A DNA stretch of 64,000 bases. Origin: a phage. The stretch lies in the sequence record PX104380.1, one strand, 5' to 3'. The notes under the pieces are model-generated. The model had not been told where the DNA came from. It searched no databases and saw nothing but the letters and a program-made list of their open reading frames with translations. Shown piece after piece: positions 4,640 to 46,354 of this stretch (positions are counted from its first letter, which is position 1; every line of letters begins with the position of its first letter). The translations under genes were made by a program, and so were the position numbers.

Positions 4640-4647
4640 TATTTATA
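4640..4647 (-). promoter_or_regulatory. candidate late promoter (TATAAATA) upstream of rIII
   Basis: Minus-sense TATAAATA immediately after gene 31 stop. Confidence 0.35.
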
Positions 4648-4983: not shown

Positions 4984-5013
4984 CGTTTTTCCTTTTTGTT
5001 AACAGATGAATTA

Positions 5014-5040
5014 ATAATAACAAATAATTCTTAAAGCATT
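5014..5040 (-). promoter_or_regulatory. candidate MotA-dependent middle promoter for gene 31
   Basis: Minus sense AAATGCTTTA (MotA box) followed ~12 nt later by TATTAT, ~30 nt upstream of gene 31 ATG. Confidence 0.4.
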
Positions 5041-5348: not shown

Positions 5349-5585
5349 TTATTTACCTATTACAGTTTTAATATGAGTTGTTCCACGTTCTTTAAGGGTG
5401 GAAAGTAATTTTTGACATTTTTCTAAATCAGATTTCCAACTATATGGTCTATCAATACAAACCCAATTTGTCTTATAATACTGCTTCCATTTAGAGAAAA
5501 AATATTTCTTATACTCTACAGCAAATGAAATATTCTCATTAGAATAAGAACTAATTGCTGTAAGCTTTACCAAACGAAATTTCAT
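5349..5585 (-). CDS. hypothetical protein, 78 aa
   Basis: ORF track. Confidence 0.45.
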   Translation of the reverse strand: MKFRLVKLTAISSYSNENISFAVEYKKYFFSKWKQYYKTNWVCIDRPYSWKSDLEKCQKLLSTLKERGTTHIKTVIGK

Positions 5586-6166
5586 TATTCACCGCAGAAT
5601 TCGTTGATATTTTCCCAGTTTAACTTATTCAAGTTTTTCTTAGGAACATTAAACACTTCAATACCCGCATTTCGCAGAATATCATCCCAGCCAGGTTTAT
5701 TTTTATCGTATGTTTCACAATAAACCAACTTTTTAATACCAGATTGAGCTATCGCTTTTGCACAATCTGGACAAGGAGAAAGTGTTACATACATAGTAGC
5801 ACCTTCAATAGAAGAACCATTTCGTGCAGCAAACAAAATTGCATTTAGTTCAGCATGAATTTCATTTTTAGATGACCATTCCGAGTGAGCACTACGATGT
5901 TCTTTCGCCAAGACAAAACGATCAGTTGAACCAAATGATACGCATTCAGGCTTATGACCTTGAATGATAGTATGTTTAGGTTTATTCAGCAACCAACCTT
6001 GCTCGGCGGCATAATCACAACAGTTCACACCACCGGCAGGCGAACCATTATACCCAGTAGAAATAATACGTCCATTCTTTTCAATTACTGCTCCTACCTT
6101 CCAGGAGCAACATTTTGATTCTTGTGATACTAAATATGCAATTTGAAGTACTGTACTCGCTTTCAT
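5585..6166 (-). CDS. cd: dCMP deaminase, 193 aa
   Basis: Cytidine/dCMP deaminase zinc motifs HAELNAI and SPCPDCAKAI; 193 aa as T4 Cd. Confidence 0.9.
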   Translation of the reverse strand: MKASTVLQIAYLVSQESKCCSWKVGAVIEKNGRIISTGYNGSPAGGVNCCDYAAEQGWLLNKPKHTIIQGHKPECVSFGSTDRFVLAKEHRSAHSEWSSKNEIHAELNAILFAARNGSSIEGATMYVTLSPCPDCAKAIAQSGIKKLVYCETYDKNKPGWDDILRNAGIEVFNVPKKNLNKLNWENINEFCGE

Positions 6167-11714: not shown

Positions 11715-12893
11715 TTAAAAATATTTTTTAAAACTCATCATAACTTTATCATCAACATCATTATCAATCTGTGCAACAAGATAAGATGACAGTTCTACTT
11801 CTTGCGGCGCGGATTGAACATTATCAGAATTAAGGTATTCACGAATCCAAGGATATGGATGTTTAACCGGAGCATCGGTAATTGGACATGGAAGACCGCA
11901 CTGTTTCATACGAGATACAGTTAAGTAATCAATAAAGCTCCACATGCTATTTGTATTTAATCCAGGAACATCGCCATCTTTAAATAAATGAACTGCCCAA
12001 TCTTTTTCTTGGCGGTTAACTTCCATGAAAATATCAACTGCTTCTTGTTCACACTCTTGAGCAATTTTAACCCATTCATCACCATCAGTGCCAAGCTGAA
12101 GTTGACGAATAATATATTGAGTGCCTTTAAGGTGAAGTTGTTCATCACGTGCAATGAACTTCATAATCTTGGCATTACCTTCCATGATTTCCATGTTCTT
12201 ATGGAAGTTAAAGGTACATGCGAAAGATACATAAAAACGAATAGCTTCAAGGGCATTAATAACATGCAGACACAGATAAAGCGACTTCATTAGCTCACGC
12301 TTCCAATATGTCTCATGCTCAATAGCATCTTCAATAACGTCTTCGTCTGCATTAATTTCTTTTTGGTATTCGATATCAGCTTTAGCGTTTTCCCAATAAC
12401 GAGTTTTAATCAGAACGTCATCATAATAACGTCCAATGGATTCAGCGCGTTTCATAATAGCTTCATCTAATACAATCTCATCAAATACCTTTGACGGATC
12501 AGTATAAAGATTTCGCATAATATGAGTGTATGAACGACTGTGAATAGTTTCACTAAAAGTCCATGTAGCAACCCATGTATCAAGACTTGGGTCTGAAATT
12601 AATGACATAAGTACAGCAGATGGCGCACGACCCTGAATGCTATCCAAAAGTGATTGATACTTCAGGTTGTTAGTAAAAATATTTTGCTGGTACTGAGGAA
12701 GCTTATTAAACTGTGCAGCATCCATCATTAAGTTTACTTCTTCAGGACGCCAAAAAAATGATAAAGATTTCTCAATAAGTTCTTCAAATACTCTATGTCG
12801 TTGAATATCATATCGAGCTAAACCCAATCCAGAACCAAAAAACATCGGCTCAGTCAAAATATTAACAGGGGATGTATTAAAAACTGTACTCAT
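11715..12893 (-). CDS. nrdB: ribonucleotide reductase small subunit, 392 aa, uninterrupted
   Basis: Full-length contiguous ORF with RNR R2-like features; position between denA and mobE. Confidence 0.9.
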   Translation of the reverse strand: MSTVFNTSPVNILTEPMFFGSGLGLARYDIQRHRVFEELIEKSLSFFWRPEEVNLMMDAAQFNKLPQYQQNIFTNNLKYQSLLDSIQGRAPSAVLMSLISDPSLDTWVATWTFSETIHSRSYTHIMRNLYTDPSKVFDEIVLDEAIMKRAESIGRYYDDVLIKTRYWENAKADIEYQKEINADEDVIEDAIEHETYWKRELMKSLYLCLHVINALEAIRFYVSFACTFNFHKNMEIMEGNAKIMKFIARDEQLHLKGTQYIIRQLQLGTDGDEWVKIAQECEQEAVDIFMEVNRQEKDWAVHLFKDGDVPGLNTNSMWSFIDYLTVSRMKQCGLPCPITDAPVKHPYPWIREYLNSDNVQSAPQEVELSSYLVAQIDNDVDDKVMMSFKKYF

Positions 12894-13531
12894 TTAGAAT
12901 CCTTAAATTTACATTTATCATAATGCCATCTTAAAGCATTGCCTTTATTAACTTTCTTGCCACAATGCGGACAAGGCGGATACTCTGTACCTTGCTTAGT
13001 TCTCAAAGAAATCAAATCACGGGTTTCTTTAGTATGAGGAACATCTCTTGTCGGAGAAATTGTACCATACATCGGATTAAGCACGCCGACTTTAGCAGCA
13101 GCTATATTCTTTTTAGCTTCTTCGGTTTTAGGTTTTCTCATGCGAGCTAAATGCTCTTTGGTAAATTTCCTTCCTTTAAGAGCTCTACTTATCTTTTCTC
13201 TGGTTTCCATAGAAACTTCACGTCCTATAGCAGCTTCAGATAAACGTCGTCTACCTAATTCGTACAGTTGAGAAGAAATTTTATATGAGCGATTTTTACC
13301 AGTCAAGCACATTAAACCAAAAGCTTTCTTTAATCCTGGGGTGTCATATATTTTACATAAAAGCCAATGAGCTATAAAATGCTCTCTACCTGTTAATTCA
13401 ACTAAATTTTCTTTATCATCAGAACCTCCCATGCATTTAGGGACTATATGATGTGTCTCTTTATATTCGGATAAAGGTTCCCGAGCCTGAGCTCGGGAAA
13501 TTAGGTCATTATAGATTTTTTGATAATTCAT
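12890..13531 (-). CDS. mobE: HNH homing-endonuclease-like protein, 213 aa, between nrdA and nrdB
   Basis: HNH motif ETHHIVPKCMGGSDDKENLVELTGREHFIAHWLL; position matches recalled T4 mobE. Confidence 0.7.
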   Translation of the reverse strand: MNYQKIYNDLISRAQAREPLSEYKETHHIVPKCMGGSDDKENLVELTGREHFIAHWLLCKIYDTPGLKKAFGLMCLTGKNRSYKISSQLYELGRRRLSEAAIGREVSMETREKISRALKGRKFTKEHLARMRKPKTEEAKKNIAAAKVGVLNPMYGTISPTRDVPHTKETRDLISLRTKQGTEYPPCPHCGKKVNKGNALRWHYDKCKFKDSK

Positions 13532-15795
13532 TACAATTTACACGCTGCACAATCGTCGGCTTTAGGAGTTTCTATTTCATAATCATCAGTACCAGAACCA
13601 TCACGGGTATTATGATAATAGAAATTTTTAATGCCATAATACCATCCGTATAACATGTCATCAATCATTATTGACATTGGAACCTTTCCTTTTGGAAAAA
13701 TCTGCGGGTCATAGTATGTATTCGCCGAAGCTGATTGACAAACCCATTTCAGCATAATAGCTACCTGCGTAAGATAAGGTTTATTACCTTTCTTAGCTAA
13801 TTTCCATGTATAATCATAGAGGTCTATGTTATGCTCAATATTGGGCACGACTTGATTAAAGGAGCCCTCTTTTGATTCTTTAACAGAGACTGGTCCACGT
13901 GGAGGCTCGATACCGTTTGTACTGTTAGAAACTTGGGAAGATGACTCACATGGCATAAGTGCTGATAATGTGCTATTACGGATGCCAAAGAGCTTAAGGT
14001 CTTCCCGCAGCGACGACCAGTCACAAACGTATTTTGGAGCTGCGATTTGGTCAATCTTTTTATTGTACCAGTCGATAGGTAATTCGCCTCGAGACCAACG
14101 AGTGTCTGAATAATATTCGCAAGGTCCTTTTTCTTTGGCGAGTTTAATGGATGCTTTAATGAGTCCATACTGTAATCTCTCAAATAGTTCATGTGTTAAA
14201 TCGTTAGCATCTTCATAAGAAGCAAAGTTACTTGCCAGCCAAGCTGCATAGTTAGTAACACCTACACCGAGGTTACGACGCTTTTTAGCTTTTTCTGCTT
14301 CAGGAACTGGATATCCTTGGTAATCCAAAAGATTATCAAGAGCACGAACTTGAACTTCTGCCAATTCATTAATTTTATCTTGGTCTTGCCAATCGAAGTT
14401 ATCCAGCACAAATGCAGATAACGTGCACAATCCAATTTCAGCATCGGGGCTATTCACATCATTTGTTGGAATAGCAATTTCACAGCACAAGTTACTCTGA
14501 CGAATAGGTGCCTTTTCACGAATAAACGGAGTATAGTTATTCGTATTATCAATGAACTGTACATAAATCCTTGCTGTTCCTGAGCGTTCAGTCATGAGCA
14601 ATTCAAATAGTTCACGAGCTTTAATACGCTTTTTACGAATATTAGGGTCTTTTTCTGCTGCTTCGTATAATTCACGGAAACGGTCTTGGTCTTTAAAATA
14701 AGAATAATAAAGCTCTCCACCCATTTCATGCGGACTGAACAAAGTAATGTAGTCGTTCTTTCCAAAACGTTCCATCATTAGGTCATTCAGCTGGACGCCA
14801 TAATCCATATGACGGATACGGTTTTCTTCTACACCTTTGTTATTTTTCAAAACGAGAAGATTTTCAACTTCCAAATGCCAAATAGGATAATAAGCAGTAG
14901 CAGCGCCGCCACGAATTCCACCCTGTGAGCATGATTTAACAGCAGTCTGAAAATGTTTCCAAAAAGGAATAACACCAGTATGACGCACTTCACCCATGCC
15001 AATCTTAGAACCTTCGGCACGAATCATACCAACGTTAATACCAATTCCAGCACGTTTGGAGATATATTCAACAATTGAAGCGGAAGCCTTATTGATAGAC
15101 TTTAATGAATCACCTGCCTCAATAACAACACATGAACTAAACTGCCGAGTCGGAGTACGGCAACCAGCCATAATAGGAGTTGGTAATGAAATCTGTCGAG
15201 TAGATACTGCTTCATAAAAACGAATAACATGTTTTAATCTATCAACAGGTTCATCTTGATGCAATGCCATTCCAATAGTCATAAATGCAAACTGAGGAGT
15301 TTCATAAATTTGACCAGTGGTTTTATCTTTAACTAAATATTTTTCTTTTAATTGCATCGCCCCGGAATAAGTAAATTCCATATCCCGCTCGTGCTTAATT
15401 TTTGATTCTAAAAATGTAATTTCTTCTGCTGAATATTTTGACAATAATTCAGGGTCATATTTACCTTCATTTACACAGTAAGAAATATGGTCAATAAATG
15501 AACGCGGTTCATACTGCCCATAAACATGCTTACGAAGAGCGAACATTAGACAACGTGCAGCTACATATTGATAATCAGGCTCTTCAACCGAAATAGAATT
15601 CGCAGCGGCCTTAATGACAATAGTCTGAATATCATCAGTTGTCATTCCATCACGGAGATAAGATTTAATATTTTCATATAATTCATAAGGATCTACTGAT
15701 GTTCCCTCAGCTGCCCAAGATAAAACTTTAATAATTTTTTGTGGGTCAAAGCTCTGAGAAACACCACTACTTTTGATAACATTAATTAATTGCAT
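13531..15795 (-). CDS. nrdA: ribonucleotide reductase large subunit, 754 aa
   Basis: 754 aa with N-terminal ATP-cone and class I RNR catalytic region; ATG verified. Confidence 0.95.
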   Translation of the reverse strand: MQLINVIKSSGVSQSFDPQKIIKVLSWAAEGTSVDPYELYENIKSYLRDGMTTDDIQTIVIKAAANSISVEEPDYQYVAARCLMFALRKHVYGQYEPRSFIDHISYCVNEGKYDPELLSKYSAEEITFLESKIKHERDMEFTYSGAMQLKEKYLVKDKTTGQIYETPQFAFMTIGMALHQDEPVDRLKHVIRFYEAVSTRQISLPTPIMAGCRTPTRQFSSCVVIEAGDSLKSINKASASIVEYISKRAGIGINVGMIRAEGSKIGMGEVRHTGVIPFWKHFQTAVKSCSQGGIRGGAATAYYPIWHLEVENLLVLKNNKGVEENRIRHMDYGVQLNDLMMERFGKNDYITLFSPHEMGGELYYSYFKDQDRFRELYEAAEKDPNIRKKRIKARELFELLMTERSGTARIYVQFIDNTNNYTPFIREKAPIRQSNLCCEIAIPTNDVNSPDAEIGLCTLSAFVLDNFDWQDQDKINELAEVQVRALDNLLDYQGYPVPEAEKAKKRRNLGVGVTNYAAWLASNFASYEDANDLTHELFERLQYGLIKASIKLAKEKGPCEYYSDTRWSRGELPIDWYNKKIDQIAAPKYVCDWSSLREDLKLFGIRNSTLSALMPCESSSQVSNSTNGIEPPRGPVSVKESKEGSFNQVVPNIEHNIDLYDYTWKLAKKGNKPYLTQVAIMLKWVCQSASANTYYDPQIFPKGKVPMSIMIDDMLYGWYYGIKNFYYHNTRDGSGTDDYEIETPKADDCAACKL

Positions 15796-23721: not shown

Positions 23722-26700
23722 ATGGCCGAGATTAAAAGAAAGTTCAGAGCAGAAGACGGTCTGGACGCAGGTGGTGATAAAATAATCAACGTAGCTTTAG
23801 CTGATCGTACCGTAGGAACTGACGGTGTTAACGTTGATTACTTAATTCAAGAAAACACAGTTCAGCAATATGATCCAACTCGTGGATATTTAAAAGATTT
23901 TGTAATCATTTATGATAACCGCTTTTGGGCTGCTATAAATGATATTCCAAAACCAGCAGGAGCTTTTAATAGCGTACGATGGAGAGCGTTACGTACTGAT
24001 GCTAACTGGATTACGGTTTCATCTGGTTCATATCAATTAAAATCTGGTGAAGCTATTTCGGTTAACACCGCAGCTGGTAATGATATTACATTTACTTTAC
24101 CATCTACCCCAATTGATGGTGATACTATCGTTCTCCAAGATATTGGAGGAAAACCAGGAGTTAACCAAGTTTTAATTGTAGCTCCGGTGCAAAGTATTGT
24201 AAACTTCAGAGGTCAACAAGTACGTTCAGTACTAATGACTCATCCAAAATCGCAGATAGTTTTAATTTTTAGTAATCGTCTGTGGCAAATGTATGTTGCT
24301 GATTATAGTAGAGAAGCTGTAGTTGTAACGCCTGCGAGTCTCTATCAGGCGCAATCAAACGATTTTATCGTACGTAGATTTACTTCTGCTTCAGCAATTA
24401 ATATTAAACTTCCTAGATTTGCTAATCATGGGGATATTATTAATTTTGTTGATTTAGATAAATTAAATCCGTTATATCATACTATCGTTACTACATACGA
24501 TGAAACGACTTCAGTACAAGAAGTTGGAACTCATTCCATTGAAGGCCGTACAACGATTGACGGTTTCTTAATGTTTGATGATAATGAGAAATTGTGGAGA
24601 TTATTTGACGGGGATAGTAAAGCACGTTTACGCATTATAATAACTAATTCTAATATTCGTCCAAACGAAGAAGTTATGGTATTTGGTGCGAATAACGGAA
24701 CAACTCAAACAATTGAGCTTCAGCTTCCAACTAATATTTCTGTTGGTGATACTGTTAAAATTTCCATGAATTACATGAGAAAAGGACAAACAGTTAAAAT
24801 CAAAGCTGCCGGTGAAGATAAAATTGCTTCTTCAGTTCAATTGCTGCAATTCCCAAAACGTTCAGAATATCCGCCTGAAACTAAATGGGTGACTGTCCAA
24901 GAATTAGTTTTTAACGGTGAAACTAATTATGTTCCAGTTTTACAGCTTGCTTATATAGAAGATTCTGATGGAAAATACTGGGTTGTACAGCAAAACGTTC
25001 CAACTGTAGAAAGAGTAGATTCTTTAAATGATTCTACTAGAGCAAGATTAGGCGTAATTGCTTTAGCTACACAGGCTCAAGCTAATGTCGATTTAGAAAA
25101 TTCTCCACAAAAAGAATTAGCAATTACTCCAGAAACATTAGCTAACCGTACTGCTACAGAAACTCGTAGAGGTATCGCAAGAATAGCAACTACTGCTCAA
25201 GTGAATCAGAACACCACATTCTCTTTTGCAGATGATATTATCATCACTCCTAAAAAGCTGAATGAAAGAACTGCTACAGAAACTCGTAGAGGCGTCGCTG
25301 AAATTGCTACACAGCAAGAAACTAATGCAGGAACCGATGATACTACAATCATCACTCCTAAAAAACTTCAAGCTCGCCAAGGTTCTGAATCATTATCTGG
25401 TATTGTAACTTTTGTATCTACTGCAGGTGCTACTCCAGCTTCTAGCCGTGAATTAAATGGTACGAATGTTTATAATAAAAACACTAATAACTTGGTTGTT
25501 TCGCCTAAAGCTTTGGATCAGTATAAAGCTACTCCAACGCAACAAGGTGCAGTAATTTTAGCAGTTGAAAGTGAAGTAATTGCTGGACAAAGCCAAGAAG
25601 GATGGGCAAATGCTGTTGTAACGCCAGAAACGTTACATAAAAAGACATCAACTGATGGAAGAATAGGATTAATTGAAATTGCTACGCAAAATGAAGTTAA
25701 TACAGGAACTGATTATACTCGTGCAGTCACTCCTAAAACTTTAAATGACCGTAGAGCAACTGAAAGTTTAAGTGGTATAGCTGAAATTGCTACACAAGTT
25801 GAATTCGACGCAGGCGTCGACGATACTCGTATCTCTACACCATTAAAAATTAAAACCAGATTTAATAGTACTGATCGTACTTCTGTTGTTGCTCTATCTG
25901 GATTAGTTGAATCAGGAACTCTCTGGGACCATTATACCCTTAATATTCTTGAAGCAAATGAGACGCAACGTGGTACACTTCGTGTAGCTACACAGGTCGA
26001 AGCTGCTGCAGGAAAATTAGATAATGTTTTAATAACTCCTAAAAAGCTTTTAGGTACTAAATCTACTGAAGCACAAGAAGGTGTTATTAAAGTTGCAACT
26101 CAGTCTGAAACTGTGACTGGAACGTCAGCAAATACTGCTGTATCTCCAAAAAATTTAAAATGGATTGTGCAGAGTGAACCTACCTGGGCAGCTACTACTG
26201 CAGTAAGAGGCTTTGTTAAAACTTCATCTGGTTCAATTACATTTGTCGGTAATGATACAGTCGGTTCTACCCAAGATTTAGAACTGTATGAGAAAAATAG
26301 TTATGCAGTATCACCATATGAATTAAACCGTGTATTAGCAAATTATTTGCCATTAAAAGCAAAAGCTGCAGATAGTAATTTATTGGATGGTCTAGATTCA
26401 TCTCAGTTCATTCGTAGGGATATTGCGCAGACGGTTAATGGTTCACTAACCTTAACTCAACAAACGAATCTGAGTGCCCCTCTTGTATCATCTAGTACTG
26501 CTACGTTTGGTGGTTCAGTTACAGCAAATAGTGTACTAACAATTTCTAATACTGGAACAGCAACTCGATTGATTTTTGAGAAAGGACCTCAAACTGGAAC
26601 AAACCCAGCCCAAACGATGACTGTTAGAGTGTGGGGAAATCAATTTAGTGGGGAATCAGATACAACACGTTCTACCGTATTTGAAGTTAGTGATGAAACA

Positions 26701-27591
26701 TCTAGTCATTTTTATTCTCAGCGCAATAAAGCCGGAAATATAACATTTAATATCAACGGTACAGTAACACCGATAAATGTTAATGCTTCAGGAACATTGA
26801 ATGCAAATGGCGTAGCAACATTTGGTAATTCAGTCACTGCAACCGGTGAAATTATTTCTCGAAGCGCAAATGCTTTCCGTGCTATTAACGGAAATTATGG
26901 TTTCATTGTTCGCAACGATGGATCAGTAACGAATTTTATGCTTACTGCATCGGGTGATCAGACTGGTGGATTCAACGGATTACGCCCATTAGCTATTAAT
27001 AATGCATCTGGTCAAGTAACGATTGGTGAAAGCTTAATCATCGCCAAAGGTGCTACTATAAATTCAGGTGGTTTAACTGTTAACTCGAGAATTCGTTCTC
27101 AGGGTACTAAAACCGCTGATTTATACACCCGTGCACCGACATCTGATACTGTAGGATTCTGGTCAATCGATATTAATGATTCAGCTACTTATAACCAATT
27201 CCCGGGTTATTTTAAAATGGTTGAAAAAACTAATGAAGTGACTGGACTTCCATATTTAGAACGTGGCGAAGAAGTTAAATCTCCTGGTACATTGACTCAG
27301 TTTGGTAACACACTTGATTCGCTTTACCAAGATTGGATTACTTATCCAACAACCCCAGAAGCGCGTACCACTCGTTGGACCCGCACATGGCAGAAAACCA
27401 AAAATTCCTGGTCAAGTTTTGTTCAGGTATTTGATGGAGGTAACCCTCCTCAACCGTCTGATATCGGTGCTTTACCATCTGATAATGCTACAATGGGTAA
27501 TCTTACTATTCGTGATTTCTTACGAATTGGTAATGTTCGCATTATTCCTGACCCAGTGAATAAAACTGTTAAATTTGAATGGGTTGAATAA
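23722..27591 (+). CDS. 34: long tail fibre proximal subunit gp34, 1289 aa
   Basis: 1289 aa, internal ~38-aa repeats (TATETRRGIA.IAT...TPKKL); late promoter upstream. Confidence 0.95.
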   Translation: MAEIKRKFRAEDGLDAGGDKIINVALADRTVGTDGVNVDYLIQENTVQQYDPTRGYLKDFVIIYDNRFWAAINDIPKPAGAFNSVRWRALRTDANWITVSSGSYQLKSGEAISVNTAAGNDITFTLPSTPIDGDTIVLQDIGGKPGVNQVLIVAPVQSIVNFRGQQVRSVLMTHPKSQIVLIFSNRLWQMYVADYSREAVVVTPASLYQAQSNDFIVRRFTSASAINIKLPRFANHGDIINFVDLDKLNPLYHTIVTTYDETTSVQEVGTHSIEGRTTIDGFLMFDDNEKLWRLFDGDSKARLRIIITNSNIRPNEEVMVFGANNGTTQTIELQLPTNISVGDTVKISMNYMRKGQTVKIKAAGEDKIASSVQLLQFPKRSEYPPETKWVTVQELVFNGETNYVPVLQLAYIEDSDGKYWVVQQNVPTVERVDSLNDSTRARLGVIALATQAQANVDLENSPQKELAITPETLANRTATETRRGIARIATTAQVNQNTTFSFADDIIITPKKLNERTATETRRGVAEIATQQETNAGTDDTTIITPKKLQARQGSESLSGIVTFVSTAGATPASSRELNGTNVYNKNTNNLVVSPKALDQYKATPTQQGAVILAVESEVIAGQSQEGWANAVVTPETLHKKTSTDGRIGLIEIATQNEVNTGTDYTRAVTPKTLNDRRATESLSGIAEIATQVEFDAGVDDTRISTPLKIKTRFNSTDRTSVVALSGLVESGTLWDHYTLNILEANETQRGTLRVATQVEAAAGKLDNVLITPKKLLGTKSTEAQEGVIKVATQSETVTGTSANTAVSPKNLKWIVQSEPTWAATTAVRGFVKTSSGSITFVGNDTVGSTQDLELYEKNSYAVSPYELNRVLANYLPLKAKAADSNLLDGLDSSQFIRRDIAQTVNGSLTLTQQTNLSAPLVSSSTATFGGSVTANSVLTISNTGTATRLIFEKGPQTGTNPAQTMTVRVWGNQFSGESDTTRSTVFEVSDETSSHFYSQRNKAGNITFNINGTVTPINVNASGTLNANGVATFGNSVTATGEIISRSANAFRAINGNYGFIVRNDGSVTNFMLTASGDQTGGFNGLRPLAINNASGQVTIGESLIIAKGATINSGGLTVNSRIRSQGTKTADLYTRAPTSDTVGFWSIDINDSATYNQFPGYFKMVEKTNEVTGLPYLERGEEVKSPGTLTQFGNTLDSLYQDWITYPTTPEARTTRWTRTWQKTKNSWSSFVQVFDGGNPPQPSDIGALPSDNATMGNLTIRDFLRIGNVRIIPDPVNKTVKFEWVE

Positions 27592-27599
27592 GAGGTATT

Positions 27600-28715
27600 A
27601 TGGAAAAATTTATGGCAAAGTTTGGACAAGGATATGTCCAAACGCCATTTTTATCGGAAAGCAATTCAGTAAGATACAAAATAAGTATAGCGGGTTCTTG
27701 CCCGCTTTCTACCGCAGGACCATACGTTAAATTTCAAGATAATCCTGTAGGAAGTCAAACATTTAGTGCAGGTCTTCATTTAAGAGTTTTTGACCCTTCC
27801 ACGGGAGCATTGGTTGATAGTAAGTCATATGTTTTTTCGACTTCAAATGATACTACATCAGCTGCTTTTGTTAGTTTCATGAATTCTTTTTCAAACAACA
27901 GACTTGTTGCCATATTAACTAGCGGAAAGGTTAATTTTCCTCCTGAAGTAGTATCTTGGTTAAGAACGGCAGGAACATCTGCTTTTCCATCTGATTCTTT
28001 ATTGTCAAGATTTGATGTATCATATGCTGCCTTTTACACTTCTTCTAAAAGAGCTATCGCACTAGAGCATGTTAAACTGAGTAACAGAAAAAGCACAGAT
28101 GACTATCAAACTATATTAGATGTAGTATTTGACAGTTTAGAAGATGTTGGAGCGACAGGATTTCCTAAAAGAACATATGAAAGCGTTGAGCAATTTATGT
28201 CAGCTGTTGGTGGAACTAATAACGAAATTGCACGTCTACCTACAGCATCTGCAATAAGTAAACTTTCTGACTATAATTTAATTCCTGGAGATGTTCTTTA
28301 TCTTAAAGCACAACTATATGCTGATGCTGATTTACTTGCTCTTGGAACTACAAATATATCTATCCGTTTTTATAATGCGTCGAATGGATATATTTCCTCG
28401 ACACAAGCTGAGTTTACTGGACAGGCTGGGTCTTGGGAATTAAAGGAAGATTATGTAGTTGTTCCTGAAAACGCTGTAGGATTTACGATATACGCACAGA
28501 GAACTGCACAAGCGGGTCAAGGCGGTATGAGAAATTTAAGCTTTTCTGAAGTGTCAAGAAATGGCGGCATTTCAAAACCTGCTGAGTTTGGCGTCAATGG
28601 TATTCGAGTTAATTATATCTGCGAATCTGCTTCACCTCCAGATATAATGGTACTTCCTACGCAAGCATCGTCTAAAACTGGTAAAGTGTTTGGACAAGAA
28701 TTTAGAGAAGTTTAA
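27600..28715 (+). CDS. 35: long tail fibre hinge protein gp35, 371 aa
   Basis: Immediately downstream of 34; length and sequence as recalled T4 gp35. Confidence 0.9.
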   Translation: MEKFMAKFGQGYVQTPFLSESNSVRYKISIAGSCPLSTAGPYVKFQDNPVGSQTFSAGLHLRVFDPSTGALVDSKSYVFSTSNDTTSAAFVSFMNSFSNNRLVAILTSGKVNFPPEVVSWLRTAGTSAFPSDSLLSRFDVSYAAFYTSSKRAIALEHVKLSNRKSTDDYQTILDVVFDSLEDVGATGFPKRTYESVEQFMSAVGGTNNEIARLPTASAISKLSDYNLIPGDVLYLKAQLYADADLLALGTTNISIRFYNASNGYISSTQAEFTGQAGSWELKEDYVVVPENAVGFTIYAQRTAQAGQGGMRNLSFSEVSRNGGISKPAEFGVNGIRVNYICESASPPDIMVLPTQASSKTGKVFGQEFREV

Positions 28716-28720
28716 ACTGA

Positions 28721-28747
28721 GGGAGCCTTCGGGTTCCCTTTTTCTTT
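28721..28747 (+). terminator. hairpin plus U-run between genes 35 and 36
   Basis: Plus sense GGGAGCC-UUCG-GGUUCCC followed by UUUUUCUUU, then late promoter. Confidence 0.5.
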
Positions 28748-28754
28748 ATAAATA
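28747..28754 (+). promoter_or_regulatory. late promoter (TATAAATA) for gene 36
   Basis: Exact TATAAATA ~25 nt upstream of gene 36 ATG, directly after hairpin. Confidence 0.7.
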
Positions 28755-28777
28755 CTATTAAAATAAAGGGGCATACA

Positions 28778-29434
28778 ATGGCTGATTTAAAAGTAGGTTC
28801 AACAATCGGAGGCTCTGTCATTTGGCATCAAGGAAATTTTCCATTGAATCCAGCCGGTGACGATGTACTCTATAAATCATTTAAAATATATTCAGAATAT
28901 AATAAACCACAAGCAACTGATAACGATTTCGTTTCTAAAGCTAATGGTGGTACTTATTTAAATAAAGTAATTTTTAATAAAGGAATGACTGTTCCTGGTG
29001 CTGGGTCAGGTGACAACGGTATTTTTGCCGGTCCTGGTGATAATGCCACATATGATACTACAAATATGGATATTGTTTCATGGTATGGTATCGGCTTTAA
29101 ATCATCACAAGGAGCAGCAGGTAGAACTGTAGTAATTAACACACGAAACGGAGATATTAGCTCAAAGGGTGTAATTGAAGCATCACAAATACGCGCAACT
29201 TCGCTATCACCAGTAAATAATTATGACCTTACGAGAAAAGATTATGTTGATGGAGCAATAAATATTGTTACAACAAATGCAAACTCTAGAGTATTACGCT
29301 CTGGAGACACTATGACAGGAAATTTAACTGCGCCAAACCTTTTTTCACAGAATCCTGCATCTCAACCCTCGCATGTTCCGCGATTTGACCAAATCGTAAT
29401 TAAGGATTCTGTTCAAGATTTCGGCTATTATTAA
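28778..29434 (+). CDS. 36: long tail fibre distal connector gp36, 218 aa
   Basis: Position, size; own late promoter upstream. Confidence 0.85.
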   Translation: MADLKVGSTIGGSVIWHQGNFPLNPAGDDVLYKSFKIYSEYNKPQATDNDFVSKANGGTYLNKVIFNKGMTVPGAGSGDNGIFAGPGDNATYDTTNMDIVSWYGIGFKSSQGAAGRTVVINTRNGDISSKGVIEASQIRATSLSPVNNYDLTRKDYVDGAINIVTTNANSRVLRSGDTMTGNLTAPNLFSQNPASQPSHVPRFDQIVIKDSVQDFGYY

Positions 29435-29442
29435 GAGGACTT

Positions 29443-33562
<4,120 letters not shown>

Positions 33563-33594
33563 TTTTTGAATAAATATCCTTAAAAGGAGGGTCT

Positions 33595-34251
33595 ATGGCA
33601 GCACCTAGAATATCATTTTCGCCCTCTGATATTCTATTTGGTGTTCTAGATCGCTTGTTCAAAGATAACGCTACCGGGAAAGTTCTTGCTTCCCGGGTAG
33701 CTGTCGTAATTCTTTTGTTTATGATGGCGATTGTTTGGTATAGGGGAGATAGTTTCTTTGAGTACTATAAGCAATCAAAGTATGAAACATACAGTGAAAT
33801 TATTGAAAAGGAAAGAAATGCACGCTTTGAATCTGTCGCCCTGGAACAACTCCAGATAGTTCACATATCATCTGAGGCAGACTTTAGTGCGGTGTATTCT
33901 TTCCGCCCTAAAAACTTAAACTATTTTGTCGATATTATAGCATATGAAGGAAAATTACCTTCAACAATAAGTGAAAAATCACTTGGAGGATATCCTGTTG
34001 ATAAAACTATGGATGAATATGCAGTTCATTTAAATGGACGTCATTATTATTCCAACTCAAAATTTGCTTTTTTACCAACTAAAAAGCCTACTCCCGAAAT
34101 AAACTACATATACAGTTGTCCATATTTTAATTTGGATAATATCTATGCTGGAACGATAACCATGTACTGGTATAGAAATGATCATATAAGTAATGACCGC
34201 CTTGAATCAATATGCGCCCAGGCGGCCAGAATATTAGGAAGGGCTAAATAA
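33595..34251 (+). CDS. t: holin t, 218 aa
   Basis: 218 aa; short cytoplasmic N-terminus, one TM segment (VAVVILLFMMAIVWY), large periplasmic domain; matches recalled T4 T. Confidence 0.9.
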   Translation: MAAPRISFSPSDILFGVLDRLFKDNATGKVLASRVAVVILLFMMAIVWYRGDSFFEYYKQSKYETYSEIIEKERNARFESVALEQLQIVHISSEADFSAVYSFRPKNLNYFVDIIAYEGKLPSTISEKSLGGYPVDKTMDEYAVHLNGRHYYSNSKFAFLPTKKPTPEINYIYSCPYFNLDNIYAGTITMYWYRNDHISNDRLESICAQAARILGRAK

Positions 34252-34524
34252 TTATTTGTTCGTATACATCTCTAGATATCGATATACACCCTCAAAACCC
34301 TCGTTGAATTCGTCGATGAGGGTTTTCTTATCTTCTTGAGTTAATTCAGAAACAATTTTACGGAATGAATTCTGATTTAATTTTCTACCTTCATGTGTTA
34401 CTCCAATCTCATTCAGAAATGCAATAAAATTAGCACGATTTTCAACAATATCTTCTCTGGAAAATTTAATTAAAATAGACGCAACAGTAATAATTTCACG
34501 AACTGTATCAATATTTTTATTCAT
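34252..34524 (-). CDS. asiA: AsiA anti-sigma-70 factor, 90 aa
   Basis: 90 aa, MNKNIDTVREIITVASILIKFSREDIVENRANFIAFLNEIG... matches recalled T4 AsiA. Confidence 0.9.
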   Translation of the reverse strand: MNKNIDTVREIITVASILIKFSREDIVENRANFIAFLNEIGVTHEGRKLNQNSFRKIVSELTQEDKKTLIDEFNEGFEGVYRYLEMYTNK

Positions 34525-37105: not shown

Positions 37106-37255
37106 TTACTGCATGACTGTGATAACTGTCATGATAACACGTTGAATTCCGAACGCAAGAAGACCTCCTGCTACGGCTGGAACAACACCTAAACCCGCCA
37201 GTAAAATGCTACCGGATACTAATGCAGCGCTTGTAATACCAATGAATGGACTCAT
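37106..37255 (-). CDS. small hydrophobic membrane protein, 49 aa
   Basis: MSPFIGITSAALVSGSILLAGLGVVPAVAGGLLAFGIQRVIMTVITVMQ; ATG overlaps gp52 stop (ATGA); below track cutoff. Confidence 0.4.
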   Translation of the reverse strand: MSPFIGITSAALVSGSILLAGLGVVPAVAGGLLAFGIQRVIMTVITVMQ

Positions 37256-38580
37256 TTGATTTCCTCTAAATCTTTAGTGTATTCTGTAACTACATCAGTA
37301 GTTTTCCAATATTCGTTTTCTTCTTTTTTAGCTTTAGCTTCTTCAGCAAGTTTCTTTGCTTCGTCGGAAGTCATATGAAAAATATTCATTCCGACTAGTT
37401 TATCGACATAAGAAGAATACATCTCAATTTTAGAAAGTTCTTCGGTCAGTTCTTTGCGAGTTTTACCCTGTACAACAATTTCACCTGAAATTACTTTCTT
37501 AATGAAATGCGCCTTGGCAAAGGCTAAACGAAAAGCTGACTCAGTTTCTTTGATTTTGTTATCAATTCGTTTTTGGACATAAGTTTTACGAACTTCAACG
37601 AAGTCTTTGATTAAATCAACTACGTTATCGTAAACTTGTAGCTTTCCTTTCTCATTAATAACGGTAATATTTTGGGAACGACGCTCAATCAACCCAAAGT
37701 CTTTCATAATTTTTGCATGGCGTTCTTCTTCGTTATCGCTCAAAGAATATTCTTTGCGGAATTTAACTTTGAAGCCAAAACCATGCTCACCACAAGCATC
37801 ATCCCATGTAATGAAGCCTTTATCTTCAAGTGGATCTAAAATTTTGCTCACATAAGTTTCACGATCATACTTATACGGAATCTCAGTGATATGCATTTGC
37901 GTTCGTGAAGTAAACTTATATGTTCCACGAATTTCATATTGACCGTCAATCTCAACGACTTCACCACGAAATTCTGGGAATTCTACCTTCGGTTTAGTTA
38001 CTTTCTTTCCTTGAAGAGCTTGCAGTACAGCTTTCTTGACAGAAGAAACACTATGAGGAAGAATGTAAGTTGCATAACCAGTTGCAATACCGGAAACACC
38101 ATTAAGAAGAACAGTAGGAATAATAGGCAAATAGAAAGCAGGCGGAATGTGTTCTTTATCTTGATGTACCGGAGCATATTCAGTATCTTTATATACGTTA
38201 TAGAAATTTTTACTTACACGAGCAAAAATATAACGACTTGCTGCTGCTTTTTGAACGGTACGAGAACCAAAGTTTCCTTGACCATCTAACAAAGGAAAGT
38301 TATTATTCCAAGTGTTAGCCATCAAAGCCCCCGCATCTTGTGCAGAGTTTTCACCATGATGATATCCAAGGTCCGCTACACCACCTGCAATAGAAGCGAG
38401 TTTGTGAAACTTATCTTTATTTCCTCGTGCCAAATCAAGAGCTCGAGCAATAACAAATCGTTGAACTGGCTTAAATCCGTCAATCATATTTGGAATGGCA
38501 CGATTTTCAACCGTGTACATAGCATAAGCCAATGCTTCATTATCAATGATACTTTTTAAATCGCGATTATTCAGTTGCAT
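37252..38580 (-). CDS. 52: DNA topoisomerase II medium subunit gp52 (GyrA-like), 442 aa
   Basis: 442 aa; GyrA-type catalytic region (ASRYIFARV). Confidence 0.9.
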   Translation of the reverse strand: MQLNNRDLKSIIDNEALAYAMYTVENRAIPNMIDGFKPVQRFVIARALDLARGNKDKFHKLASIAGGVADLGYHHGENSAQDAGALMANTWNNNFPLLDGQGNFGSRTVQKAAASRYIFARVSKNFYNVYKDTEYAPVHQDKEHIPPAFYLPIIPTVLLNGVSGIATGYATYILPHSVSSVKKAVLQALQGKKVTKPKVEFPEFRGEVVEIDGQYEIRGTYKFTSRTQMHITEIPYKYDRETYVSKILDPLEDKGFITWDDACGEHGFGFKVKFRKEYSLSDNEEERHAKIMKDFGLIERRSQNITVINEKGKLQVYDNVVDLIKDFVEVRKTYVQKRIDNKIKETESAFRLAFAKAHFIKKVISGEIVVQGKTRKELTEELSKIEMYSSYVDKLVGMNIFHMTSDEAKKLAEEAKAKKEENEYWKTTDVVTEYTKDLEEIK

Positions 38581-40428: not shown

Positions 40429-41367
40429 TTATTTAAATTGTTCTGTAACGTCTTCAACTACTTCGTATTGGCAGGTACGCATTTTAGCATCGTTGTAATC
40501 AATCGGAATTGATACTACATCACGCGGATGTACTTTAACTTTTACAACTCGGCTAGTTGAACTGCCAAAGTGACGAATATAAGATTTAGAACACACATGC
40601 AGACCGCGAGAACAAGTTTGTGTATCATCGTCATTCACACGAGTACGTGGCATTTTAACTACTTTACCAGGGCTGTTATCAAAAGTATTTGAATGACAGT
40701 CAAAGTAATTGCTGCGAACTACTTTCCAAGCATAGAAGTAACCGTCTTCTGTAATTTCAATATCGTTTGCTACCAAGAAATCAAAGAGTCGAGATACCGC
40801 TTTTTGGCTTGGGTTTTCCAGCAGATTTTCCAAGAACGGAAAATAGAATTCAAAGTTTTCGCCTTTTTCCATCGAGTCAAGAATACGATCAACCAAACCA
40901 GACCGTAATTCGATATTTTGATAGAACAAGCTTCCACCTTCAATTCGAACATCGCCGGAAATATATTTTTCAACAGCGCGGCGAACATTAATTTTTTGCG
41001 CAGCTTCTTCCAGCTTATCTGCTACAAGCAGATTAAGAATTTCCTGGAAGTTTGAATGAGTATTAGGAGTTGCGTTATAAGTTACACCGTCAACAGTAAT
41101 TGAAATGAATTTTTTAGATGCATTCCAAATAATGTCAGATTTAGCAACTGGAGCAATAGCTACATCACTCTTAACTTCAACTGTAATGTCACCGCTAATA
41201 GTAACTTTGGAGCGTTTAGCTTCTTCAGCATTTTTCAAAACACGACGGATTGTGTCAACCGATACACCTTGCCAATCAGCCAATTCCTGTTGGGTGTAAT
41301 TACCACTTGAATACAGCTTAACAATTTCAGCTTGTTCGTTTTTGGTCAGGCATTTAATATTGTACAT
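40429..41367 (-). CDS. rIIB: rIIB, 312 aa
   Basis: 312 aa, immediately downstream of rIIA; N-terminal HTH-like region (YTQQELADWQGVSVDTIRR). Confidence 0.9.
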   Translation of the reverse strand: MYNIKCLTKNEQAEIVKLYSSGNYTQQELADWQGVSVDTIRRVLKNAEEAKRSKVTISGDITVEVKSDVAIAPVAKSDIIWNASKKFISITVDGVTYNATPNTHSNFQEILNLLVADKLEEAAQKINVRRAVEKYISGDVRIEGGSLFYQNIELRSGLVDRILDSMEKGENFEFYFPFLENLLENPSQKAVSRLFDFLVANDIEITEDGYFYAWKVVRSNYFDCHSNTFDNSPGKVVKMPRTRVNDDDTQTCSRGLHVCSKSYIRHFGSSTSRVVKVKVHPRDVVSIPIDYNDAKMRTCQYEVVEDVTEQFK

Positions 41368-41378: not shown

Positions 41379-43556
41379 TTAGGCCGCAAGGGCCTTCATA
41401 GTTTTAGCGATTTGAGAAACTTCATCATCACTTAAAGAGTTGCGATATCCGATGAAGTCGGAAACAATACGGAATTTCTTGGTAAACTCAGCAACCATTT
41501 TATCACTGTTTTTTGAAGCATTATTTGATAATACATCAAAAAGATTAGTTACTGTCCAGATGTCATGACCGATGGTATCTTTTCCACCATTAAAATACAC
41601 ACCCTGCAATGAACTAACCATATTAGCGAGTCGTGTATATTCTTCAGAAACTTCATCTGTACTGAAGTACTTCATCATAAAATCTAGTTCAGGATGCTTG
41701 ATAATTTTATCAATATATCGTTGAGCTGAACTTGAATAACCTACATACTTATCATAATCTACATCATCAAAAGCATCTACATATAAATCACGTAAAGCTT
41801 CAAAAATACATTGGCACTGACCAAGCTCTTTTACCTTTTTCTGCAAAAGCGGACGAATAACATAAAATTCATTAATGCCAATAAGATTAGCCATACGAAT
41901 CAAAATATTCATAGATGGATGACAAAGCGATGTAGTACCATCCATAGAGAAAATATCAGAACGATGCATATACGCTACATACCCAGTAATTTCATCTGCT
42001 TCTGATGTGAGCGTAAATAATTCCTCTTTTTCCCAGCGCCCGTCTTTAATTTCAAACTTAAATGCTGTAGCAGCTTTAGGACGAGGAGCTTTACTTTTAA
42101 CTACCTTTGGAATATAGCTTTTAACTAAAGCTTCAATTTCTGACAAATAATGAATGTTAACTTCATCACTTTCAAACATCGCCATAATATCAGGAAGCAA
42201 ATCAATCTGCGATTCTACTTCTGGATTAATAAACAGAAGGCGTTCGTTGTGATGAATATTTAAGGTGTTATTAAATTCACTATCATCTAACGCATGTGCT
42301 AATCCACGGACAATATTAACACGATTTTTAATATTATCAATAACGATATTAATTTTTGTTGCATTAATACCAAACAGACGATAACTTGATGCAACGGCTG
42401 AAGTTTCATGACTTTGCTTAATGCGTTTCAGTCGAGGGTCAAGATTTACTTCATACACAACTCCTGCATTGCATAACTTACTATCAGGTTCAAACATACT
42501 CTGCATCTTTTTATATGACAGATTTTTAGTCGTGAATTTGACTGAATTACTAATCATATAATCTCGAGCAGAATACCCCATCTTCATCAATTCACGATAT
42601 GTGTGACGAGGAGATGTAGATTCTTTAAATCGTTTTACATCTTCATTAAATGCTTTCTCACTGAGTTCTTTAACTCGTTCAATAATATTTTTACGAGTAC
42701 GATCATCCAGTGAAAGAGCCTCACGAGATGGAGCAATATCAAGTGAACCCATTGGAAACTTAATGTAATTCACTTCATTGCGAATGCTTAGCCAGTTACG
42801 GTCTCTAATAACACCGTCGATAGGATAAACAATACCGCCATAGATAGCATATAATCCGCCGCGATCTGGCCAGTATCTTTCTGGATTTACACCGTAATAA
42901 TCATCAAAATCCGGAAAATAATCAATTTCGCGGTCAAGACCGTTAATGATAGCCAAATCTTTGAACGGTCGCATGATATAAGAAACTTCATAAGCAAAGT
43001 TTCTAAAGTCTTTTTCTTCAACTGGAACTACGATTTCAATACCAGTTTTATCATCTGGATCCATTTCTTTTACGAATGTAGGTTTAATCTGTGGACCATC
43101 ACCATCCATGTAAGCTACATAACCACGAATTTCACCTTTATGATACGAAGTAATACTAAACGTATCAGTATAACTAAACGGAGATTTAGAACCTAAACCA
43201 AATCCACCAATGAAATCATTAGATTCAGCTTTAGATGAACTGAAATATGAATTATACAGACCAGGAGAATTATCATCACCCTGAATATCAAAATCACTCA
43301 TACCCGGACCAAAATCTCGACAAACAAATCGTGGATCTAAACGTCCAGGAACTTGAATGATAAATTTTTCAGGATTTCCATTGAGAGAATGGGCATCAAT
43401 CATGTTGGTAATCAATTCACGGACTACTGCGCGAATCTTGTTTGTATACAAATCAGACGACAGAATTTTAAATACTTTAGGAGATGCTGTGATGCTAAAT
43501 GCTTTTGATTTAGAACCATTGCCAAGAATTGTTTCTTTTTCAGTGGTGATAATCAT
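41379..43556 (-). CDS. rIIA: rIIA, 725 aa
   Basis: 725 aa; N-terminal GHKL-ATPase-like motifs ([10 protein letters not shown]..., GFGLGSKS). Confidence 0.9.
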
Positions 43557-43566
43557 AATTTCCTCA

Positions 43567-43770
43567 TTAATTCATATTACGCTTAATAACTTCAGCAACT
43601 TCTAGTAATTCATCTTTAGTTGCAGTGTCGGATTGAATTTTATCTCTAATATCTTTAAAGCGGTTTTTAAATTCTTCGGCTTCTCCCATATCGAAAAAGC
43701 GTTGAATGATTCTATATTCTCGATGAACTGCTTTATCAAAAAGTTCTAAATTTACTTTATATGATTTCAT
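43567..43770 (-). CDS. hypothetical protein, 67 aa
   Basis: ORF track; early-type promoter upstream. Confidence 0.5.
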
Positions 43771-43795
43771 TTCAATATCCTCATTTGCCCAATTA

Positions 43796-43825
43796 ATTAT
43801 ACCACATCCTTGTGGTAAAGTAAAC
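43796..43825 (-). promoter_or_regulatory. early-type promoter
   Basis: GTTTAC-N18-TATAAT upstream of ORF 43567-43770. Confidence 0.55.
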
Positions 43826-45642
43826 TACTGGCTCATCCATTCTTTACGAAGGTCAGCATTATCTCCCATGAGCATTTCAAAAAGCTCATTCCAGTTCTCA
43901 GGAAGTTTAACAACATCATATACCGGATTTTGAATCATCTCACGATATTCAGATTTTTCCAAAGAGCCAAGTCCCTTAATATAACGGATGCTATGTTTAG
44001 GTAGAGCATCTTTAGCACTCTCATATTCAGCGACTGTATAAAACCATTCTTGTTTTTTACCGACCTGAGCGATGATTACAGGAGTTTTGACAAAGCGAAT
44101 TCTTCCTTGTTCAAACAGTTCTGGCCAATTACTAAAAAATCCGAGCAGAGAAGGATAAATGCTTCCTAGACCATCATGGTCAGCATCGGTCATAATAGCA
44201 ATATTATGATAATTCAAGTTTTCAGCTTTTTCACCAAGAACTAATCCAGTGATTGCGCAAATATCAAACAGTTCTTTGTTTTTAAGCATATCAGCATATG
44301 ACATACCCCAACTGTTGAGAACTTTACCGCGCAATGGATAGCCACCATGAAGTTCTTTATCACGAACATCGATTAAATAACCAATTGCAGAATCACCCTC
44401 AGTCAAGAAAAGAGTAGTGTCAGCATCTTTACCACAAAGATTCGCTTTGATATGTTTATGAACCTTAGCTTTAGAAGCCTTTTTAGCTGCTTTAGTTTCT
44501 GCTGCTTTTTCTGCCGCCAATTTACGAGCCAAGGCAGCTTCAATAATCGGCATTAAAATTGCTTCATTATTTAGAATAGCGCGTGAAATCTTTTTAGCAT
44601 CAAGTTGAATATGACTACGAATTTCGCCAAATGGAGAAGTCAAACGCTCTTTAGTTTGAGAATCAAATCGCATGTTTTTCATATCACGGACAAACATAAC
44701 GATAGTCAAACATTCTTTAACGCGTGCTTTAGTCACATCAATTTTGAACTTACGTTTGATTTGTGGAATAAGGTCTTCACAAATATCATCCATAACACAG
44801 TCAATGTGATGGCCACCATTCTTAGTGTGAATGTTATTCACATAAGTTAATTGACGAAAACCATCCGGTGAACGACCAACCGCAATAGAGCAATTTTCTT
44901 GTTCTTGAACGATAGCATGCTCATCATATTGGCGTGCATATTTCTTAAAATTGCCCTGAACCTTTTTACCATTAAAGGTAAATTGAATATCAGGATAAAC
45001 TACTGCAAGTGTCTGGAGACGATCTAGTGTAATGTCAAGATAAACTTGGGACAGCTCATTAGTTTCAAATGACATAAAATCAGGAATGAAAGTAACACGA
45101 GTTCCTTTCCATTTTCCAGGAATAGTTTCCCATGATTTATTTTCCATGCCATTTGAACAACGAACTACAATATTATTTTGACCATCACCAGTTTCACCGA
45201 CAAACATCACAGAAAAAATGTTTGTCAAACTAGAACCAACACCATTCATACCGCCAGTGACGCGTTCTTTATCATCACCGAAGTTACCACCTGCTTTTGG
45301 AATAGTCCAGGCAGCAACAGGACCAGGAATTTCTTCACCGGTAGGTGTTTTGACCATCGCTTGTGGAATACCGCGACCGTTATCTTCAACTGTTACCTGA
45401 TTATTTTTAATGGTAACATTAATTTTATTCGCGAATTTAAACTTAGTACGAATACCTTCATCTACTGAGTTATCGATAATTTCATCAATAAGCTTAACAA
45501 GACCAGGTACATACTGAACACTTTCCCATTTACCAAACAGAAAGCGCTCATGCATTTCATTAGCAGAAGAGCCAATATACATGCCGCTACGCTTTTTGAT
45601 ATGTTCAATATCGCTCAGAATTTTAATTTCATTCTTAATCAT
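43825..45642 (-). CDS. 39: DNA topoisomerase II large subunit gp39 (GyrB-like), contiguous 605 aa
   Basis: GHKL ATPase N-terminus (IDEIIDNSVDE, GRGIP), TOPRIM region; single uninterrupted ORF. Confidence 0.9.
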   Translation of the reverse strand: MIKNEIKILSDIEHIKKRSGMYIGSSANEMHERFLFGKWESVQYVPGLVKLIDEIIDNSVDEGIRTKFKFANKINVTIKNNQVTVEDNGRGIPQAMVKTPTGEEIPGPVAAWTIPKAGGNFGDDKERVTGGMNGVGSSLTNIFSVMFVGETGDGQNNIVVRCSNGMENKSWETIPGKWKGTRVTFIPDFMSFETNELSQVYLDITLDRLQTLAVVYPDIQFTFNGKKVQGNFKKYARQYDEHAIVQEQENCSIAVGRSPDGFRQLTYVNNIHTKNGGHHIDCVMDDICEDLIPQIKRKFKIDVTKARVKECLTIVMFVRDMKNMRFDSQTKERLTSPFGEIRSHIQLDAKKISRAILNNEAILMPIIEAALARKLAAEKAAETKAAKKASKAKVHKHIKANLCGKDADTTLFLTEGDSAIGYLIDVRDKELHGGYPLRGKVLNSWGMSYADMLKNKELFDICAITGLVLGEKAENLNYHNIAIMTDADHDGLGSIYPSLLGFFSNWPELFEQGRIRFVKTPVIIAQVGKKQEWFYTVAEYESAKDALPKHSIRYIKGLGSLEKSEYREMIQNPVYDVVKLPENWNELFEMLMGDNADLRKEWMSQ

Positions 45643-45696
45643 TACTTATCCTCGTTTGGTTTCGGGAATATTATACTCCAATAATCATAAAGCTAA

Positions 45697-45714
45697 AGGC
45701 CCGAAGGCCTTTTA
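45697..45714. other. UUCG-tetraloop hairpin overlapping stop of lipoprotein ORF
   Basis: aaaggcccgaaggccttt; minus sense GGCC-UUCG-GGCC. Confidence 0.4.
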
Positions 45715-45972
45715 TTTAAAACGAATAGTTGAATCCTTAAAGAACAGCCCAGAACATACTGTTCCTTCTACTTTCTGCCCGGTAGGTCCAATAGCACGAA
45801 ATCCAGTATGCTGGAAATCATTTTCAGAGCAACCGAACCAATTATATCCAGTGATTTCAATATTAGTAAAACCACTTGAAGACAAAACTTTGGTTGCATT
45901 ATCAGCATCAGTACATCCTACTAAAGATACTGCTAATACTAATGCCGCGATAGAACGATTAACATATTTCAT
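45712..45972 (-). CDS. small lipoprotein, 86 aa
   Basis: Signal peptide with lipobox LVGC (MKYVNRSIAALVLAVSLVGCTDA). Confidence 0.5.
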   Translation of the reverse strand: MKYVNRSIAALVLAVSLVGCTDADNATKVLSSSGFTNIEITGYNWFGCSENDFQHTGFRAIGPTGQKVEGTVCSGLFFKDSTIRFK

Positions 45973-45976
45973 AATT

Positions 45977-46354
45977 TCACTTAAATTTAATGGCTTGAAG
46001 GAGACTAATAATTCTTAAACGGCTTCTTTCATCTTTAACTGTAAAGGAAAGAGGGTCACCAGATTTCATAGTGATAGTGCATCCAAAATCAAAATTTTCG
46101 GAAACTTCTTCGAAGAAGTCAAATTCTTCAGCATAAATTAGAACATTACTCTGCATACTGTGAAGAATTTTTCCATCATTTCCAGATGCTGTACTAATCA
46201 TCGTAACATTATGACCTTTCATATCTTCAACGATAAATTCGCTTGTAGATATTACAGCATTAATAGAACCATTCCTATAAATAGCAGACATTAGATATTT
46301 CTTTTCTTCACCTTCGCGAACACGATATTTCTTACCGATTTTAAACATAATCAC
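45977..46354 (-). CDS. hypothetical protein, 125 aa
   Basis: ORF track. Confidence 0.5.
   Translation of the reverse strand: MIMFKIGKKYRVREGEEKKYLMSAIYRNGSINAVISTSEFIVEDMKGHNVTMISTASGNDGKILHSMQSNVLIYAEEFDFFEEVSENFDFGCTITMKSGDPLSFTVKDERSRLRIISLLQAIKFK

Follow-up and report, generated by a model that had tools for sequence, protein, structure and literature searches.

An unsplit T2/T6-type gene 39 for the large topoisomerase subunit of a T-even phage, with an apparently empty site for the MobA cassette of T4

The analysed window, a 64,000-nucleotide stretch of phage DNA (sequence record PX104380.1), carries at 43825..45642 on the minus strand a gene that we identify with high confidence as a Tequatrovirus (T-even) gene 39 in the unsplit form typical of T2 and T6. 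Judging from the open reading frame (ORF), the Pfam domains and the identity to the T6 and T2 proteins, it encodes the large subunit, GyrB-like with ATPase and TOPRIM regions, of the type IIA DNA topoisomerase made by the phage. In the ORF listing, the gene is a single 605-aa frame with an ATG start and zero internal stops. An earlier reading of this DNA from the letters alone (the sequence-only reading) had described a single uninterrupted ORF lacking a gene 60 split, and this description stands: there is one ORF, its product aligns without gaps to that of T6, and the T4 alignment agrees. The unsplit gene, the protein structure, the relation to T4 genes 39 and 60 and the explanation by a mobile cassette are all published, so that none of this is new. 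Indeed, gp39 of T2 and T6 has been known for decades as part of the two-subunit form, and its relation to the split T4 gene is textbook phage biology; the GenBank record of RB32 even names the gene '60plus39'. What the window provides is an "empty site" of the MobA cassette, cleanly resolved to the base, at 44161..44223.

The domains and motifs of a B-type subunit are found along this one polypeptide, and all the Pfam domains score above the curated cut-offs. The GHKL ATPase core (HATPase_c, PF02518, E=1.9e-9) occupies aa 47-149 (45196..45504, minus strand); the GHKL motifs are the N-box EIIDN at residue 54, G1 (DNGRG) at 87 and G2 (GMNGVG) at 131. The transducer domain (DNA_gyraseB, PF00204, E=1.5e-13) spans aa 250-384 (44491..44895, minus strand), and its QTK loop, lysine included, is at aa 329. 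The TOPRIM catalytic glutamate motif EGDSA (aa 415-419; 44386..44400, minus strand), located by motif search and alignment, and the metal-binding DxDxD motif, here DADHD (aa 486-490; 44173..44187, minus strand), located by motif search and in the codon printout, form a metal site within the same chain, whereas in T4 the former is on gp39 and the latter on gp60. The C-terminal TOPRIM-associated domain (TOPRIM_C, PF16898, E=4.4e-7) covers aa 519-604 (43831..44088, minus strand), corresponding to the body of T4 gp60. Among the TOPRIM models only TOPRIM_C was detected, the core Pfam Toprim model giving no match to the 605-aa protein at E<=0.001; the TOPRIM region is covered by the motifs and by full-length alignments to the solved T6, ParE and Topo II chains.

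Sequence comparison and neighboring genes agree that the window is DNA of a T-even phage (Tequatrovirus). With a 20-kb query taken from it, many Tequatrovirus genomes of Escherichia and Shigella phages show ~95% identity. A shorter query of 2.7 kb around the ORF matched 549 phage records, 494 of which align to it as one place over at least 80% of its length, with 95-99% identity; the annotation under those matches runs rIIA, rIIA.1, "DNA topoisomerase II large subunit" and then hypothetical proteins. In the window, rIIB lies at 40429..41367 and rIIA at 41379..43556, and the downstream neighbor of gene 39 is rIIA.1 (67 aa; 43567..43770, minus strand; PF24210, E=1.4e-33), a place that it also holds in T4, T2 and T6. 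In the two-subunit holoenzyme, gp39 pairs with gp52, a 442-aa GyrA-like DNA breakage-reunion subunit (PF00521, E=1e-76) encoded 5 kb away by gene 52 (37252..38580, minus strand). The GHKL fold, the transducer with the QTK lysine, the TOPRIM metal site and the GyrA-like partner, by which a B-type subunit is recognized, are thus all present.

Several other features of the region deserve mention. A sigma-70-like site (TTTACT, 17 nt, TATAAT, with an upstream TG) is located at 43796..43824 (minus strand), directly after the gene 39 stop and before rIIA.1; in a promoter and terminator scan around gene 39, sites were no more frequent than in shuffled sequence. Upstream of gene 39, an 86-aa gp39.1-like ORF (45712..45972, minus strand) begins with a lipoprotein-like signal (MKYVNRSIAALVLAVSLVGC; ...LAVSLVGC); 39.1 is annotated with only 65 aa in the T4 reference but is longer in T4T (record 5387..5647, 261 nt). 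Between 39.1 and the zinc-ribbon gene 39.2 there is a 371-nt stretch (45975..46345) with a 125-aa ORF (45977..46354, minus strand) that produced no Pfam match; T2 and T6 share this stretch (92-95% identity), and T4 lacks it. Farther away, the GC skew turns positive over the plus-strand block 24000..34300, the tail-fibre block, which ends with a glycine-rich 268-aa ORF (32756..33562, plus strand) containing long glycine runs (GGGGGGGG, GGGGG) and followed by a 218-aa membrane-protein-like ORF. The 268-aa protein may correspond to the tail-fibre adhesin gp38 of the T2/T6 type, which it resembles, rather than to the T4-type chaperone.

In T4, the same subunit is divided between two genes. In the annotated T4 record the order is rIIA, rIIA.1, gene 60 (two joined pieces), 60.1, a mobA pseudogene and gene 39, and the pieces of gene 60 flank a 50-nt "non-coding translational bypass region"; the record and the literature thus bear out what the sequence-only reading stated about T4, namely that gp39 and gp60 are parts of one split subunit and that mobA and a bypass of 50 nt go with the split. 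In the alignment to gp39 plus gp60 proposed in the same reading, residues 1-473 of the 605-aa protein correspond to T4 gp39 1-473 (98% identity), and residues ~477-605 correspond to T4 gp60 32-160, that is, up to its end, the alignment starting with N-Y-H-N-I-A-I-M-T-D-A-D-H-D-G. The flanking genes are the same in T4 and in the window. The 43-aa C-terminal tail of T4 gp39 (FEEKEDGEW...RKNL) and the first ~30 aa of T4 gp60 find no equivalent in the window, and likewise the mobA pseudogene, 60.1, the 5' end of gene 60, the homR segment and the 50-nt gap are without counterpart at the window locus. The two motifs separated by the T4 split, the EGDSA glutamate (aa 415) and DxDxD (aa 486-490), are halves of one metal site, so that the split falls inside TOPRIM, a separation that has also been remarked upon in the literature. 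Accordingly, the earlier statement that the GHKL and TOPRIM regions share one ORF is correct, but a placement of the T4 split between these two regions would need a minor correction.

At the DNA level, window positions 45700..44225 match T4 5386..3911 (95.9% identity) and window positions 44160..43517 match T4 2793..2150 (98.3%), with just one weak 35-nt match (80%) between both blocks. The match to T4 ends sharply at gene nt 1419/1420 and picks up again after nt 1482. These breaks delimit a 63-nt parental segment (gene nt 1420-1482, aa 474-494; 44161..44223, minus strand) that is replaced in T4 by the ~1.1-kb mobA/bypass cassette. Within it, the Gly491 codon GGT (44170..44172, minus strand) is at the position of the T4 take-off codon GGA, and in the codon printout it is immediately followed by CTA (Leu), without UAG, hairpin or 50-nt gap: the window reads GAT GCT GAC CAT GAT GGT CTA GGA AGC ATT TAT, whereas T4 has GAT CAC GAT GGA, then TAGCCTTCGGGCTATCTATAGAAATACCTCATAATTAAGAGATTATTGGA, then TTA GGT TCT ATT TAT.

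The T4 reference shows one peculiarity in gene 39. Around NC_000866 ~4340..4370 (window ~44650..44680), gp39 of the reference reads MRLIRQTKE, as opposed to MRFDSQTKE in the window and in T2, T6 and T4T. The difference stems from two 1-nt indels that compensate each other (ATTGATTCGTCAA vs ATTTGATTCTCAA) and shift three codons immediately ahead of the catalytic QTK loop. The MRLIRQTKE variant is most likely an old sequencing error.

The boundaries so defined, the 63-nt deletion and the identity between homR and the window agree with the published description of the MobA element. According to this description, the element inserts at aa 466-473 of Topo2L, its 3' end lies just after D490/G491 (+9 nt in clade 1), 55-75 nt are deleted upon insertion (64 nt in the HY01 example), and homR is 67-81% identical to the parental sequence (Manning and Atkins 2022). 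The nick site of MobA was placed in the replaced segment, approximately 20 nt upstream of where the bypass is inserted, and the unsplit gene was regarded as parental, the same segment serving to tell parental from inserted genomes (Manning and Atkins 2022). Furthermore, in experiments T2 acquired both the split and the 50-nt insert through MobA (Bonocora et al. 2011, as cited by Manning and Atkins 2022). The conversion of T2 is reported to be nearly complete.

The MobA cassette is recognizable by a Topo2L ORF split near aa 466-473 with cassette-encoded tails, by mobA between the halves and by the signals of the 50-nt gap (a GGA take-off codon with a stop codon after it, a take-off stem-loop and a matched GGA landing codon), and none of these is present at the window locus. 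The T4 take-off hairpin GGATAGCCTTCGGGCTATCTATAG had 0 matches in the whole window with up to 3 mismatches allowed, in agreement with the expectation of the sequence-only reading that no bypass hairpin would occur; a blastn-short search of the window with the 50-nt T4 gap yielded only chance matches of at most 11 nt; and tblastn searches of the 64 kb with the C-terminal tail of gp39 (CTE) and the N-terminal tail of gp60 (NTE) produced nothing better than E=0.35. A gene-60-like fragment elsewhere had been named as a potential contradiction, but tblastn of the 64-kb window with full gp60 finds no second copy. The T4 alignment likewise reveals no extra DNA and no HNH gene (mobA) within the gene 39 locus.

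The search for a mobA-like ORF, negative at the locus itself, was not negative over the window as a whole. A tblastn search with intact MobA (from T4T) resulted in one significant match, which covers 13250..13531 with 55% identity to MobA aa 1-90 (E=5e-24) and belongs to a 213-aa homing-endonuclease ORF with HNH and NUMOD3 domains (12890..13531, minus strand; MobA tblastn and Pfam), the sole Mob-type gene detected in the window with the MobA query. This ORF is flanked by nrdA (13531..15795) and nrdB (11715..12893), with overlaps of 1-4 nt on either side, and it is in the nrdA-nrdB interval that MobE, a related endonuclease, has been described. We considered and rejected the possibility that the ORF is a displaced mobA, given its position between nrdA and nrdB, the restriction of the likeness to MobA to the HNH-containing N-terminus, and the C-terminal NUMOD3; most likely, it is MobE, a paralogue at its own homing site. 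The adjacent nrdB (minus strand) is a single uninterrupted 392-aa ORF. In T4, nrdB carries a group I intron with I-TevIII, and the window nrdB may be another intron-less 'empty site'.

Is the contiguous state ancestral, as the sequence-only reading presumed when it called the locus uninvaded? Among Tequatrovirus layouts, 494 records are contiguous (at least 95% nucleotide identity) vs 43 with the T4 cassette, and the latter include several T4 laboratory strains. As an outgroup test, a 161-aa query spanning the junction (aa 401-561) was searched against phage records. It matched 2025 of these, in 1932 of which at least 80% of the query is found as one continuous place, at identities down to ~33%; the records with a continuous junction include Dhakavirus, phages of Klebsiella, Raoultella, Acinetobacter, Erwinia, Vibrio, Sinorhizobium and Campylobacter, and LIMEstone/PhiSH19-type and Ackermannviridae-type phages. 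In this search T4 gave a half-length match and two places, whereas nearly all related complete genomes gave a single place. TOPRIM is also continuous in the cellular GyrB, ParE and Topo II structures. These comparisons confirm that, across ~2,000 phage genomes, the contiguous state is the rule and the split T4 gene with its bypass a rare exception. The 63-nt segment tells the same story at the nucleotide level: the window differs from T2 by one silent change (ACC vs ACT at Thr485), whereas homR, the substitute borne by the T4 cassette, is identical to the window at only 33 of 45 positions (73%), and the window also shows the parental type in the 9 nt that directly follow the bypass position, CTAGGAAGC vs TTAGGTTCT in T4. 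Because the unsplit layout prevails in Tequatrovirus, the junction is continuous in outgroup phages and the 63 nt are kept near the T2 type, the "ancestral, uninvaded" reading is supported, and the unsplit form represents the parental state, in agreement with Manning and Atkins (2022), with Bonocora et al. (2011) as cited there and with the 2024 T4/T6 structural paper.

The same nucleotides bear on the most serious alternative, namely that the MobA/bypass cassette was once present and has been precisely lost by gene conversion from a co-infecting naive phage, a secondary restoration of the 'hit and run' kind. The element has been described as decaying progressively and getting lost, and as possibly mildly deleterious, its loss balancing its spread (Manning and Atkins 2022); moreover, T-even genomes are highly mosaic, and over 20 kb even the best full-length relatives reach just ~95% identity to the window. 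If the locus had been restored in this manner, it would exemplify the cycle of invasion and loss proposed for the MobA element. However, the published cases of loss keep the split gene and the tails, whereas the window lacks both the CTE and the NTE peptides and its 63-nt segment is of the parental rather than the homR type, as are the 9 nt just past the bypass position. Since no scar of any kind is present, we consider such a restoration improbable.

Far less credible still is the opposite polarity, with the split genes 39 and 60 being ancestral and the 605-aa form produced by joining them. The introduction of the 2024 T4/T6 structural paper (PMC11461880) formally leaves 'gene-fusion or gene-separation' open, but the outgroup comparison effectively refutes a fusion: TOPRIM is continuous in those 1932 of the 2025 phage records, across distant genera, as well as in the cellular enzymes, the T4 split parts the two halves of a single metal site, and the T4 insert bears a homing endonuclease gene that is reported, in the work as cited above, to move the split state into T2. 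Finally, an assembly or consensus error hiding an interruption in the ORF, a possibility that came from the sequence-only reading and has nothing specific in its favour, can be given hardly any weight because the 1818 nt and the frame recur in T2, in T6 and in hundreds of further genomes, all sequenced independently, and the protein aligns without gaps to the solved T6 chain.

With the unsplit, probably parental gene as the preferred reading, certain functional expectations follow. There being no trace of the MobA/50-nt bypass cassette at the locus, translation of gene 39 needs no recoding. From the near-identity to T6 and the general knowledge of type IIA enzymes, gp39 and gp52 would be expected to form an A2B2 heterotetramer that binds the G-segment; the tyrosines of gp52 together with the TOPRIM-bound Mg2+ would cleave both strands; ATP-driven dimerisation of the GHKL domains would capture the T-segment; and passage of the T-segment through the break would relax and decatenate the phage DNA during replication. 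We infer that the window enzyme would perform ATP-dependent relaxation and decatenation. The T4 topoisomerase relaxes DNA but does not introduce supercoils. Furthermore, because the 63-nt target segment is nearly identical to that of T2 (one silent base), we predict that the phage would be susceptible to acquiring the MobA cassette in mixed infection with a MobA+ phage, whether its locus was never invaded or has been restored.

The closest known systems are the topoisomerases of T6 and T2. The T6 gp39 (YP_010067157; PDB chain 8ylu_C) is identical at 603 of the 605 residues, end to end and without gaps, the 2 substitutions being Q526H and N585K; T2 gp39 is identical at 602 of the 605, again gap-free, with 3 substitutions (F70L, T173D and N585K), and in both proteins the differences are outside the catalytic motifs. 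At the nucleotide level, gene 39 is 97.0% identical to that of T6 and 95.7% identical to that of T2; both genes have 1818 nt, the same length as in the window, the same locus and the same domain order, and the gene order rIIA, rIIA.1, 39, 39.1 is common to all three phages. A PDB search aligned T6 gp39 (8ylu and five further entries) over residues 1-605. The cryo-EM structure of T6 gp39 (8ylu) was solved in the 2024 study, in which the topoisomerase II of T2 and T6 is described as consisting of two subunits (gp39 and gp52), that of T4 uniquely of three, and the T6 holoenzyme is active in relaxation assays (PMC11461880). Compared with the B subunits and regions of the cellular type IIA enzymes (GyrB, ParE and the N-terminal half of eukaryotic Topo II), the phage protein is shorter (605 aa), is without the GyrB insertion and tail, and pairs with the short, 442-aa gp52. 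ParE and GyrB match it over nearly the full length (E 1e-37 to 1e-48) and share its architecture, and human Topo II alpha and beta match over nearly the full length as well (E ~1e-59), having in common with the phage subunit the succession of GHKL, transducer and TOPRIM domains.
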